19,069 nucleotides of DNA from Escherichia coli (lineage in GTDB: Bacteria; Pseudomonadota; Gammaproteobacteria; Enterobacterales; Enterobacteriaceae), in the NCBI RefSeq assembly GCF_003334815.1, contig NZ_QOWO01000053.1. One strand, 5' to 3'. Shown here piece by piece: positions 9,001 to 15,000 of this stretch. Every line of letters starts with the position of its first letter. Position 1 is the stretch's first letter. A program made the position numbers.

Positions 9001-12000
9001 GCTTGCATTGTTCAACGTTGCTCCGGCGGAATGTAGCGATTTATAAACAAGGTTCCAGTCCAGACCGAACTGTTCGTTTCTGGTATTGCTGACGCTCAGA
9101 ACCTGTACGTTCAGGGCTACCTGGCGGTTCATAATACTGTTTTGTTCGTCTACATATCGTGCGACGGCTTCCTGGACAGCTGGAGTATCAGTGACTGTCA
9201 GCGTTGAGCTCGATGCAGATAACCAGTAACGGCCTTTTTCTGGTGTCAGCATTGCTTCAATAGTTTTCCGGATATCTTCATACAGATCGTATTCCTGACC
9301 AACGGTTGTGCTCTGAGAGGACGTTGCATCACCGGATGCTGAGTTATCCTGGCCTCCTGTTGCCCCCATTGTGCTTGTTGAGCCAGAGCTGACACTGGAA
9401 CTGCTGCTGGTTTTGGTGTTCAGCATATGAAGTGGATACGTTCTGGTTTCAGTCAGATAGAATACAATCCGACCATTATCCATGCGCCAGTACAGACCAC
9501 TCCGGCTGGCCATCAGATCCAGAAGACCATTGATATCTCCCTGCCACATGAGGTTATTCAGCGTTAATGGCTGAGTGGAGGTAGTCATTGTTGTGCTGCC
9601 CAGGCTGCTTAACGGTAGACGTCCATTTTCATCTGGTGCTGGTAGTGTTCCTGTCATCTGGCGGGTAGCGCCTCCTTCAAGAGTTGAATTGGCTGCGTCA
9701 GGCGTGATGATCACAGGGATGCCGCATACGGCAGTAATACGTTGCCCCAGTTCCTGCAGAGTGATCTCTCCTTTTCTTGCCTGCGTGATGTAGCAGGCTG
9801 GAGCTGTTTGTTTTTTCTCTCTTGATACCTGAGCGACCGGAACAGGGTTTATCCATTGATTATCGAGCCAGGTAAGAGCCTGCGATTTACGGGCCGAAAG
9901 GGCTGATACCTTTTCCCGTGCATGTGCTGAGTCTTCCTGTGCTTTTTTCTGCATTTTGTTGATTTCGCTGAAAGTACATCCGGAGATGGAAAGAGCGACG
10001 GCGATCATGCAGGGGAGCACCGCCAGCTTCATTGAACGCTGGTGTGATTTTTTCATGAATATATCCAGATTAGTTAACGTAGACGACAGAACCAGCAGTA
10101 ATGCCTGCCGGGGGTGTCAGACCGGTTGCAGTTCCTGATAGCCAGGTGAGTTGCCCGTTTTGGAAGATCCCTATTAGTGCAGAACCACGACTTTTTAAAC
10201 GCAAAGTTTCAACAAGTCCTGGTTGTTCAGGCATCCATACCCACAGACGCCCCTGTTGTAACTGATGTTTAATTCGGGAGTCCGGAGTGACAGGGAGAGC
10301 CAGTTTATCTGAGGAAATTACTCCGTCCTGCTGGCCTGATACGTATCTGATATCATTGATTCTGTTAGCAATCATTAGTATCTGACTTGCCCATACAGAC
10401 GCACTTGCATATTGCTGGGCGTTTGTGGTTTCAGACATCTTCTGATTCTGGTAGCTACCAGTGATAATCAGAATGGTCAGGCCGACGGCCATGACCAGCC
10501 ATCCCATTAGCGACCATCCCTTGTATCAGAAACTGTAATGATGCACTGCATGCGAGAAGCCTGTGCGTATAAAGGTTTTTGCGCAGTCCGATATAACTCA
10601 AATACCTGCTCCATGGCTGATTCAAATGATCCCCGGAACATCAAAGGCGCATCAAGACGGTAATCGGTTACAGAAAGTGGCCATATGACCATCCAGTGCG
10701 TTGATGCCATGCTTTCGCATTTTGTTTCTTCTGCCCACTTAATAATGTTTTCCCTTAATGTAGTGCCTGCCGGCGCACGCCACTCTTTACCCTGAGATAC
10801 CGGTTTGACAGGTGTCCCGGTCATGAGTGGGATAGACTTGACTGTAGAGCCGGTCGGAGTCGGGATTGCTGCGGGCGTAGACGGAGATACGCTGTTTCCC
10901 CTGAATGGGTTTCGTGGTTTGTTCTGGCTATTTGCTGTCGTTGAAGACTCCGGGGAAGTGGATGTGGTTACCATGGCTGCTGGCGAGATAGTGGTTGCCG
11001 TGTCCTGTGCCGGTGCAGCAGCCGATGTTGTGACGGTCAACGTTTTATTATCCCAGTCCAGATGGCCCCAGAGGTGTTGTTCTTCCAGCAACCGGTTCAG
11101 AGAACGGGTCCACTGATCATTGGCAGACCATGAAACCAGTTTGGTATTCAGTTTGGGCGTGGCTGCATTCTCTTGTCTGAATTTCCATCCTTCCGGTAGT
11201 AATGTTTTTATCCACTGACTGACGGTCCGGTTACGGGCCGTCGGCGATAGTGTTACAGGGGTGCTACCAGGCTTGCCTGTAATGATTAACCGGGAGAAAT
11301 TCTGACTTATTGTTGGTGAAGGTAACGGTCGGGATTCGCTTACTGGCTGTGCTGTTTTTACTGTCTCTGGCACGCTGACTCTCGGGGGCGGAGTTATTTT
11401 AGGTGGAGAAAGTCGTTGTTGCGTAAGTGCCAGGACGCCAGCACTCTCACTGATTTGTCCGTCAACAAAAACCAGAGCAGGCGTATCTGATGGTGCCACG
11501 TTATTGCCGCCGGAAATTCCGGCACAGCCGGACAATAATGACGGCAGTATAAGTGTCAGATAGTTTTTTTTCATAACGGAGACTCCGTGTTCGTATATAC
11601 GTGTTTGTTAGTTAATGCGGACTTTAAGTAAGGGTTCATTATTTTATGTGCAATTGGATGGGTAATGTATACCGGTATTGAGAGAATTACTCCTGAATGT
11701 CCCGTTTTAGTCGCATTCAGAAGTCTGCTTGGGTCTTTAATATTGTTGATTAGTATTTTCATTATTCTATCTTTTGAATTTTAATGTTGCATGTTATTTT
11801 AAAGGTGAGGTTGTGGATAGCCAATTAAGCCAGTGTTTTGGGATTTTTTGTGAAAATAAAAATCCTGCTTATGAGCATTCTTTTTATATCTAAATGTATT
11901 TTTTAATTGGTGTGGTGGGTCTGGAGAGGACGAATGACGACTGTCATTCCGTCCGAATGCAAATGCGGGAAAGACCACTGAAACAAGAGATATATAAAAG

Positions 12001-15000
12001 GAATTGATAATTTTTCGTACAGACTTGTTTTCCGTGGGTATGTAATAACTGAAAAACTCAAATCATAAGATTCCAGTCTCTTTATAAGTTTATTTATTCT
12101 TGCTGGAGTAAAGAGATGTGAATGCATGACAATGATTTCATCATTATTAATTGCTTTTGATATCAGAGAAAGCAATACATCCCAGTGTTTCCTCATTGAC
12201 TTCGGGCAACGTGTGTCAGCATAGGGGCTAAGATGTATAGTTGATTTCTTGCTTCCCTTTTTCTTCTTCACAAAGAATGTGAAGTCGTATTTAGATGCAG
12301 ACCTTACAATAAGAAGTACACATCTGAAAAGTAGTGGGAAAATGCAAATCACAACCACCACACAGAAATATAACATATAAGGCAATGATAAGTTGTCAGT
12401 GTATGGATAACGTAAGTATTGCCATGGGGTAGTGATGTACAGACAAAGCGTACACCAAAGCAACCATAGATATAATGGTACGTTATTATTTTTCATATTA
12501 GTTGACTTTTAATACTGTTTTCTATCACCACATTTTTATGTGTCTCATTTGGCACTTCGTACTGTTGGAAATATTGTTGGCGGCGGATGCGTGTCTGTTC
12601 ACTGCTTTCTATTAACACCGCCATGGCGATTGCAAAGTATATGCAAATCAGGAAAATCCAGAACGCGTTTGGTATCTTCCAAAAAAGTGTGGACAGTTTG
12701 TTATGTGGTGAAACTAAAATCGGAGAAAGGATTCCACAGACAATCACAATCGCGATGGTTAATTTAACTAAAAAGAACACGGCCCCCACCTGTTTTGACG
12801 AGGTCTTTTGTTTTTGTTGTGTTTACGACAGCCAGTCCTGTAGATGCTGATGGCGGGAGCTGCTGCCCTTGTGCCAGCGGCAGTGGCTGCCGGGAGCACG
12901 CTCCAGTCGGAACAGAAATCGGTTGTCGCGTAGTACCACCACGAGACAGTTATCCGGCGTGCAGAAACGTCGGGCAAGCTCATCGGGGTCTGTCGGTGTT
13001 TTCGTTGAAAACAGCCTGCGTTTGCAGTGTGCGTCGACGACCAGTATTTGCAGTCGTCCGGGATGTTGCTGTGGCATCAAAGACTCCTTCCGGAACGGGA
13101 AAAGAAGCAGCTGTACCGTCATAACTGCACGTACCGGTTGCGAAAAAACGGCACAAGCGAGTAGTGACAGAAAGAATGTCGGAAACGGCAGGAAGGGCGG
13201 TACAGGCTGCGAAGACGGGAAACGGGTTGTGTTGGGAATTAACGCACGTGAGGTGTGATGAGAACGACGCGCTTTTCGCCAGCTCCGTCTCCGGTGAATC
13301 CATTCACGACAAGGGACTGTTCCGGTCTGAGAGAAATGCTTTGTTCAACAGTCTGTTTTCGTTTCTGGTCTGTGGTCGAGAGTCGCAGAGTGATATTTCC
13401 GGGCGCACCGTGAATATCCGGTGATACCTGCATTCTGACACCGGGAGAGACATCTGCAGTGAAGGTATCCGGACCTACGGACGTTACCAGTGATTCAACA
13501 CAGGGCGTATTCTGTATCATCCCGTGGAGCGTTTCAGGTGTCAGCGTCAGGCTGCCATTAAAAAATGCACTGCGTGAAATACTCCCCTGAGCACCGGCAA
13601 ACAGGTCCGGATGGCGCTCATTAAGAAGGCTTCCGTATTTTTCCGCCAGGCAGATTGGGTTGCTGGCCGTTGTGTCTGTTCGCACGGTATCGACCGTGAA
13701 TGTCACCTGCGGGTGATGTTCCCTGTGGCCTGTGCAGCCGGACAGCAGTGCGGCGGCTATCGTCATCCAGAGTAGTGGTTGTTTTTTCATGCTGTTAATT
13801 TCCTCTCAGGGTAAAAAGAAAGACTCGCACCGTCATGTCGATGGGGGCCGCTTGCGAAAAAATGGCACAAGCGAGTAGTGACAGAAAGAATGTCGGAAAC
13901 GGCAGGAAGGGCGGTACAGGCTGCGAAGACTGGAAACGGGGTATGCCGGGGATTACACATCCTCAGTGTAATGTGATAGTTGTCTGCTCCTGTGTTGCAC
14001 CCCAGACATCTTCTGGCAGGCTGGGCAGCCCGATAAATAGGGTGTGAAAGAGGGTTTCTCTGCGTTCGATCCCGAATTGATGTTCGTATCCTCTCACCAC
14101 CTGAAATCCTTCGTCGGAGAATATTAACTCTGCCGTTTCCAGAAGCTGCATAGTTTTGCGGTGTAGTGGAGTGATCAGCTGCAACGTAACTGGTGCCCTC
14201 ATATCGCCTGTCGGTAGAAAACACTCTTCGGTGCGACTTAGTTGTAGCAGATGACGTTTCCCGGAACAGGCCCGTTCAATGGATTCATTGAACACCCTCT
14301 CAGGCCATGGGCAGACATATGTGCGCCAGCCTGCTTTCTGTAATTTACCCAGTGCAGCCCGAAAACGAAACAACGGACATTCCCCGACAGTGGCAGAGCT
14401 GAGAAAGAGCGTATTCAGCGTTCCGATGATGGGAATATTGCGATCTTTTTCGGTCAATGCTTTTAACGCCATGATTTCGCCAGGGAGACTACGGAACTCA
14501 GGATGTCTGCTGGCACCAGAAAGCCATTCAAGCAGGTAATGCCGTAATCCGGTTTCACTGGTTATATTGTGGTTTTCCTGTGCCGTTTTCAGGGCATTCA
14601 GTGCACACCAGAGCAACTGGCGCACGGGATGTTCTGTCGTGGTCATGCGAATGTCCTACTGTGAGATGAAAAGAAGACCGGTATCCGCTCTCTCCGCCAC
14701 ACGTGATGGCACGGGCCGGCCTTTGATAAAACGAATCAATACTCTGGGGTGAAGCCTTTTATTTCTTTCGCCATTAAGAAATACACGATTCCATCAAAAG
14801 ACAGGGGGAGTCCATGGTGGGGATGGCTTCGTGCAGGCTTCACTCCAGAATATTCTCTGAATTGAAAAAAGCCCGGCCCGAAGGCCGGGAAATACTGGCT
14901 ATGGGATGTTTACAAGGCGCTCCATAAAGCCGTGATGTTCGGCATTTGATACCAGTTCCAGGAGCAGGGATATCCTCGACTCAGGCTGGAGAGTATTTTC

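Follow-up and report, generated by a model that had tools for sequence, protein, structure and literature searches.

Most probably, the AT-rich stretch that interrupts the GC-rich thin-pilus (pil) operon in a 19,069-nt piece of Escherichia coli DNA (contig NZ_QOWO01000053.1 of assembly GCF_003334815.1; the window, whose coordinates are used throughout) consists of the ordinary genes pilJ and pilK, with an ancestral, composition-driven low GC content, plus a known polymorphic insertion carrying a small open reading frame (ORF), and holds no new foreign module. The window is 100% identical to the E. coli plasmid NZ_CP024481.1 (IncI-gamma/K1 by replicon typing; MPF_I) and matches more than 1,400 plasmid records (about 1,437) from Escherichia, Salmonella, Shigella and Klebsiella; it is part of an IncI1-complex plasmid, and the AT-rich block is the 5' accessory part of the thin-pilus (type IVb) operon. 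Comparison with related loci (given numbers with L here; L017 is R64) shows a 295-bp AT-rich insertion in the pilK-pilL spacer to be the only recent acquisition in the block. The small ORF, of 63 codons and called ORF63 here, begins in this insertion.

Composition and ancestry of pilJ and pilK

The GC dip is real, well past sampling noise, and bounded precisely by genes. A sliding profile puts every 300-nt segment from 11551 to 12750 at a GC of 0.33-0.39, whereas segments on either side reach 0.50-0.56 (10801-11550) and 0.52-0.55 (12751-14100); pilL has 0.505, 12801-14646 has 0.527 and the window overall 0.473. The lowest of all sliding segments of 1215 nt (mean GC 0.471, standard deviation 0.037) has a GC of 0.356 and begins at 11561, within the block, whose edges fall at the starts of pilL (11574) and pilJ (12789). 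A preliminary description of this DNA had put the contrast at mid-30s % against about 50%, which is accurate (0.363 against ~0.50), and the two ATGA overlaps that it named are present in the sequence: the pilJ stop with the pilK ATG at 12493-12496 (CTAATATGAAAAAT), and the ORF63 stop with the pilL ATG at 11571-11574 (CCGTTATGAAAAAA). Between the traA region and the repZ control region, GC falls sharply a second time, to 0.30 over the 300 nt of 16651-16950.

The two larger ORFs of the block, earlier called pilK-like and pilJ-like, prove to be just that. PilK is 85% identical to R64 PilK over its full length (197 versus 196 aa; E 2e-127), and its gene adjoins pilL on the upstream side, on the same strand of the pilI-V operon, across the enlarged spacer. 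PilJ is 70% identical over 91 aa to R64 PilJ (residues 6-96 against 3-93 of the 150-aa protein; E 3e-44); at 98 aa it is not full-length, the C-terminal ~55 residues of R64 PilJ having no counterpart, and it is the short ColIb-P9-type form also found in L002, L003 and L006. In R64 genetics PilJ is reportedly dispensable, unlike PilK, which thin-pilus biogenesis needs; the 1999 work of Yoshida and colleagues is said to have found PilK required for thin-pilus formation and liquid mating.

The low GC of pilJ and pilK was shown to be ancestral, because R64 and distant relatives are equally AT-rich. R64 pilK and pilJ have GC contents of 0.369 and 0.355, and in three divergent metagenomic or genomic relatives (L023-L025; PilK identity 67-76%) pilK is at 0.348-0.394 against 0.49-0.52 for pilL-N; pilK is present and AT-rich in all relatives examined. 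We calculated the GC expected of each protein's residues under the pooled codon usage of every tabulated gene except pilJ, pilK and ORF63 (pilI, trcD and traC included), which gave 0.398 for pilJ (observed 0.395) and 0.401 for pilK (observed 0.367). GC at third codon positions (GC3) is 0.444 in pilJ and 0.383 in pilK, within the 0.36-0.47 spanned by pilL-V, and for pilJ the second-position value is 0.313 with an overall GC of ~0.397; the GC3 outliers are the GC-rich pilI (0.64) and the trcD-type gene (0.53), and not pilJ or pilK. Since the GC of pilJ and pilK is close to the amino-acid expectation and their GC3 falls in the operon's range, the dip is shown to come mostly from PilJ and PilK residues with AT-rich codons (Ile, Leu, Phe, Lys, Asn, Tyr) and not from a recent foreign origin. 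Amino acids are not the whole cause, and this tells against the composition-driven account in its simplest form: pilK has a modest further AT preference at synonymous sites, its GC3 standing at the operon's low end and 0.07 under expectation.

These results divide the two options that had been offered for the block. Normal membrane-protein composition was correct for pilJ and pilK, given their equally AT-rich R64 homologues and a GC3 in the operon range. A separately acquired module does not describe these two genes, which have R64 homologues of similar GC; it does describe the pilK-pilL insertion, which had not been delimited and which holds the start and most of ORF63. R64 and all divergent relatives examined lack this insertion, while roughly one in four related plasmids carries it.

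The block might instead be a horizontally acquired foreign module that serves as an H-NS nucleation or silencing site, relieved by the NusG-family proteins TraB and TraC. Its GC of 0.36 against 0.50, the sharp edges at gene boundaries, the low GC kept in all relatives and a NusG-family gene upstream would all suit such a module, and on a deeper time scale pilI, pilJ and pilK are an add-on to a pilL-V core, in that the thin-pilus clusters of IncI2 plasmids such as TP114 lack them (PMC9045228). However, the synonymous-site composition of pilJ and pilK does not lie outside the range of neighbouring genes, as that of a foreign island would, amino-acid composition accounts for most of the drop, and in many Enterobacterales (Yersinia, Pectobacterium, Erwinia and others) type IVb clusters come with PilK-like proteins. 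We regard this silenced module as improbable and read pilJ and pilK as old, ordinary members of the operon.

Features of the AT-rich block and its surroundings, in window coordinates
Feature	Position	Strand	Remarks
pilL	10507-11574	minus	lipoprotein gene, first after the block; own GGAG Shine-Dalgarno kept
ORF63	11571-11762	minus	63 aa; ATG at 11762; stop overlaps pilL ATG
AT-rich block	11575-12789	minus	pilJ, pilK and enlarged pilK-pilL spacer; GC 0.363
Insertion in pilK-pilL spacer	11608-11902	minus	derived, 295 bp; TAA flanking each side
Core island of ORF63	11626-11724	minus	99 nt; common to a 60-70-aa ORF upstream of VirB-like type IV secretion system (T4SS) genes in IncI2 plasmids
Sigma-70-like promoter match	11796-11824	minus	TTGGCT-17-TAAAAT; 34 nt upstream of ORF63 ATG; consensus scan only
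pilK	11903-12496	minus	197 aa; two predicted N-terminal membrane helices, then alpha/beta domain; ATG overlaps pilJ stop
pilJ	12493-12789	minus	98 aa; short ColIb-P9-type allele; predicted hydrophobic helices; GTG start preceded by GGTGGGGG; annotated pilJ in NZ_CP024481.1
pilI	12823-13077	minus	84 aa; GC-rich (0.58); directly upstream of the block

The pilK-pilL insertion and its spread

The pilK-pilL spacer is 328 nt long in the window versus 33 nt in R64, ColIb-type loci and others, reading ...CCAATTAACAAACACGTATATACGAACACGGAGTCTCCGTTATG. The insertion is absent from L002-L004, L006-L008 and R64, where the junction reads CCAATTAACAAACAC, and likewise from the divergent outgroups L023-L025, whose pilK-pilL gaps measure 28-33 nt; because all three outgroups have the short spacer, the long form is derived. 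It was shown to have arisen once, in an IncI1 lineage. Full-length copies are found in 372 of the ~1,437 matching plasmid records, with at least 99% identity in 333 of them. They occur with several different pilI/J/K alleles and track the window-type pilL allele (98.6-100% identical), not the pilK allele, L008 being the one exception. Because its presence follows pilL rather than pilK, this distribution points to spread by recombination, in linkage with the one pilL allele, into about a quarter of related plasmids.

An insert of 282 bp between pilK and pilL of IncI1 plasmids has already been reported (PMC8004404), and it is the same element: it has the same location, is likewise extra sequence relative to R64 and ColIb-P9, and contains an ORF, which that study neither characterised nor related to IncI2. 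The part that BLAST leaves unaligned here is also 282 nt (11614-11895), and the true indel is 295 nt once the repeated junction bases are allowed for. In the plasmid pESBL (NC_018659), from E. coli O104:H4, pilK and pilL are likewise 328 nt apart (PMC4288162).

At the ends of the insertion only the 3-nt TAA is repeated at both junctions, which fits a target-site duplication or microhomology equally. A discrete 295-bp indel with TAA at each side, present alongside several pilI/J/K alleles, could be a small non-autonomous mobile element resembling a miniature inverted-repeat transposable element, but no inverted repeats were found at its ends (11608 and 11902), no copies were found beyond the pilK-pilL site in the 372 plasmids (apart from the 99-nt IncI2 island discussed below), none were found in phages, and the distribution follows the linked pilL allele, as recombination and not transposition would have it. 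An origin from such an element is barely conceivable, and this or an insertion-sequence origin was rejected as a candidate in favour of recombination.

No intrinsic terminator was predicted on the minus (coding) strand, which leaves transcription able to continue through the operon, and the promoter-like site in the insertion could add to pilL-V transcription, although the consensus scan that found it returned 7 sites in the region against 3.9 expected and gives no evidence of function. RNA folding of the whole pilK-pilL spacer was not significant.

The region around the insertion is variable at large. At least six arrangements between pilI and pilL occur among the sampled plasmids: pilJ is 98 aa long, 150 aa long, replaced by other small ORFs or absent, and the pilK-pilL spacer is short or long. 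L002 has a 142-nt insertion between pilI and pilJ made of a duplicated 72-nt pilJ 5' end (window 12711-12782) and a 70-nt unmatched spacer (3246-3315 of L002); the corresponding insertion of L003 is 139 nt, with a shorter unmatched spacer (61 nt), and L012 also repeats the pilJ 5' end, so that the pilI-pilJ gap is 166-175 nt in such ColIb-type relatives versus 33 nt in the window. Identity to R64 is 99.1% over traC and the genes upstream, 90.3% over the pilJ 5' end and pilI, 89.8% over pilK and 94.8% over pilL-V, and the sequences at the traD/trcD position are non-homologous. The block that diverges from R64 (~11896-13951) exceeds the AT-rich block and takes in the GC-rich pilI, and composition and recombination history therefore do not coincide. 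R64-type and ColIb-P9-type alleles of pilI/J/K and of traD/trcD have been distinguished before, with a recombination point proposed near pilJK (PMC8004404, citing Sampei et al.).

ORF63 and the core shared with IncI2 plasmids

ORF63 starts within the insertion, which holds its first 51 codons, and its final 11 sense codons and stop codon fall in the ancestral 33-nt spacer, where the frame closes at the earliest stop available to it, a TGA overlapping the pilL ATG. The overlap is thus a matter of geometry, of a frame running into the ancestral spacer, and is by itself no evidence of design. The ORF had been described as coupled to pilL; the ATGA overlap on which that rested is real, but geometry explains it, and pilL has its own GGAG. 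Conservation, which the preliminary description proposed checking, was found: the ORF is intact in all insert-bearing loci examined and was detected by tblastn in more than 375 plasmid records. The exact protein is already listed as a hypothetical protein (UniRef A0A075MEK8_ECOLX; at least 1000 contigs), and most of the sampled plasmid records have no feature, or pilL only, over ORF63.

The one link of the insertion to other DNA is the core island of ORF63, which is 84% identical at the nucleotide level in ~120 IncI2 plasmids (e.g. L010, L011 and L018) and 94% identical in L013, with unrelated flanks; the 196 nt of the insertion outside the core have no match in plasmids or phages. At the protein level the IncI1 and IncI2 cores are 67% identical over 39 aa (E 2e-18), which suggests that a conserved core of 33-39 residues is common to ORF63 and the small IncI2 ORF. 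The IncI2 protein WP_022540746.1 (60 aa; 70 aa in the R721 form) and ORF63 have in common the core LLNA.KTGHS..ILSIPV..THP.AHKIM.PY. They differ in context: the IncI2 ORF lies between a yhbB-like gene and VirB-like T4SS genes and overlaps the upstream gene by 32 nt, whereas ORF63 lies between pilK and pilL. In L013, an IncI2-like metagenomic contig, the island (6036-6134) is a mosaic: ~20 nt of IncI2 type come first, followed by 75 nt that match the IncI1 insertion exactly. This indicates either that short patches have passed between IncI1 and IncI2 plasmids or that the L013 lineage was the donor.

Whether this frame is a gene was weighed from its pattern of change. In both plasmid groups every variant keeps the frame open in spite of stop-rich, AT-rich DNA, the other two frames on its strand hold stops, and the opposite strand has no ORF of at least 40 aa there. 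Insert-bearing IncI1 loci vary at 3 of 192 sites in ORF63 versus 11 of 141 in the insert upstream of it, and the 16 differences between the IncI1 and IncI2 cores, where only the ORF63 frame is open, fall 3/3/10 by codon position with a ratio of nonsynonymous to synonymous rates (dN/dS) of ~0.5. Taken together, the coding signals are weak to moderate.

A number of observations weigh on the other side. All three substitutions in ORF63 among the IncI1 loci are nonsynonymous, no clear Shine-Dalgarno sequence precedes its ATG (the match is weak), one assembly has a frameshifted variant of 53 aa, and the ORF is unannotated in RefSeq NZ_CP024481.1. The N- and C-terminal tails of ORF63 and the IncI2 ORFs are unrelated, and variable in length in IncI2, so that the core alone is conserved. 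A HMMER scan of 1.84 billion representative proteins returned IncI1 and IncI2 variants only, and a peptide-pattern scan of 100,044 species genomes found no relatives outside IncI1/IncI2, with one IncI1-like contig from a metagenome-assembled genome. The AlphaFold2 (AF2) model is of low confidence and uninformative (pLDDT 49). The idea that translation of ORF63 is needed to open a hairpin over the pilL Shine-Dalgarno sequence was dropped, the hairpin being weak, no better than shuffled sequences and not conserved in L024. A word-indexed protein search with ORF63 returned a single IncI2 variant, and no match was found in Pfam, PHROG, NCBIfam or PDB.

In the balance of these observations, that ORF63 is a translated and functional small protein seems possible yet somewhat doubtful. 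If it is translated, its stop on the pilL ATG would restore translational coupling across the lengthened spacer. A bolder form of the idea, in which ORF63 and its IncI2 counterparts would be a translated micro-protein family of I-complex plasmids, placed upstream of the first exported pilus or T4SS component and tuning its expression or assembly, with the insertion a regulatory cassette exchanged between IncI1 and IncI2, strikes us as rather unlikely.

That ORF63 is no gene at all has not far short of an even chance. On that view, illegitimate or short-patch recombination with an IncI2-like plasmid would have left the insertion behind as a neutral scar, with an incidental frame and an ATGA overlap that arises only because no stop occurs in that frame in the ancestral spacer. 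Such a scar would account for the restriction of the IncI2 homology to 99 nt with abrupt edges, and the mosaic within the L013 island means that short recombination tracts do occur here; the weak Shine-Dalgarno match, the purely nonsynonymous changes within IncI1, the variable tails, the lack of a wider family and the poor AF2 model are in keeping with it, as is the absence of the insertion from three quarters of related plasmids, among them the transfer-proficient R64. It is harder to reconcile with a frame open in every variant of two plasmid groups, given a chance of ~1% per frame, estimated from base composition, that 63 codons stay open, and with the third-position bias, the dN/dS and an ORF portion ~5 times less variable than the rest of the insert.

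The island could also act in cis as a non-coding nucleic-acid element, either a structured RNA or a protein-binding site. Its conservation at the nucleotide level is sharply bounded in two contexts unrelated to each other, and an inverted repeat, TGAATG-N14-CATTCA, is kept in both the IncI1 and IncI2 versions. Folding of the 99 nt was nevertheless not significant on either strand (z = -1.9 for IncI1 and 0.03 for IncI2), with no common structure past a 6-bp stem, no Rfam family matched at gathering thresholds, and the substitutions have the three-base periodicity of coding sequence, which leaves a cis-acting element highly improbable.

Plasmid context and comparison with known systems

On the minus strand, the genes run traC, a 183-aa lipoprotein gene (at the ColIb-P9 trcD position), pilI, pilJ, pilK, pilL, pilM, pilN and onward. 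A 108-nt direct repeat (13134-13241 and 13848-13955; 93% identical) brackets the lipoprotein gene, one copy preceding that gene and the other preceding pilI; R64 has a single copy upstream of pilI, plus traD. The repeat looks like a duplicated leader or promoter segment imported with the gene cassette. Rfam covariance models had no match in 11571-12800, and their only matches in the window lie elsewhere. One is the PK-repZ pseudoknot (17155-17303, plus strand; 194.5 bits) upstream of repZ, an expected IncI1 replication-control element that confirms the plasmid type. The other is a full-length C4 antisense RNA (RF01695; 16214-16301, minus strand; 77.5 bits versus a gathering threshold of 45) just upstream of traA, of a family best known from the immunity region of phages P1 and P7. 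At the other end of the window (1-1074; L027), this plasmid lacks, by comparison with R64, the rci recombinase gene and most of the shufflon segments; pilV comes within ~390 nt after traE, and a 244-nt shufflon-derived piece (831-1074) is inverted relative to R64. With rci and most shufflon segments missing, the PilV tip adhesin appears fixed in this plasmid.

The finding is ordinary and largely known, since the pilJ/pilK alleles and the polymorphic insertion were previously described, and beyond annotation it has little consequence. What we add is modest: exact boundaries for the insertion, outgroup evidence that it is the derived state, and a link between the ORF63 core and a small IncI2 ORF. 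The insertion is a handy lineage marker among IncI1 plasmids, pESBL of the O104:H4 outbreak strain and the large Salmonella Infantis plasmids included, and if ORF63 proved functional, it would add slightly to the understanding of how conjugative pili are controlled. More generally, a sharp GC dip in a plasmid operon can be old and driven by amino acids and need not imply recent acquisition.

PilK belongs to a wider set of predicted membrane proteins. Its AF2 model (pLDDT 69.6) has helices at residues 5-22 and 37-68 followed by an alpha/beta domain, and these helices over hydrophobic sequence agree with the earlier description of the 197-aa product as a membrane protein; literature and prediction together suggest that PilK sits in the membrane by two helices and has its alpha/beta domain in the cytoplasm or periplasm. 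PilK and PilJ have no match in Pfam, NCBIfam, PHROGs or a PDB sequence search, and no solved structure matches the PilK model significantly (best PDB E 0.012, TM 0.31). The AFDB50 structure matches of PilK are PilK itself, R64-type TraD and PilK-like proteins of Yersinia, Pectobacterium, Erwinia, Pantoea and Photorhabdus. TraD and the PilK-like models beside type IVb clusters (e.g. Yersinia pseudotuberculosis Q6EVP1) have the same predicted architecture and fold as PilK, with TM-scores of 0.55-0.72 in spite of low identity (16-27% for TraD and the PilK-like proteins of other Enterobacterales). R64 TraD (L017 32350-32916) is 25% identical to PilK (E 2e-13), the fold search pairs them too, and the two are distant paralogues. 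There are two copies of this family in the R64 transfer region and only one in plasmids with a trcD-type gene. A relationship of PilK to the IncI2 yhbB-like protein or to a 197-aa R721 protein was rejected; these are unrelated, and the equal length of 197 aa is coincidental.

Set beside R64, then, the block has its pilJ and pilK in the same pilI-pilJ-pilK-pilL position and with the same AT-richness. The two plasmids differ in that the C-terminal third of the R64 PilJ is missing here, where pilJ overlaps pilK by ATGA, and in that R64 has the short pilK-pilL spacer without a 63-aa ORF, and traD in the place where the window has its trcD-type lipoprotein gene.

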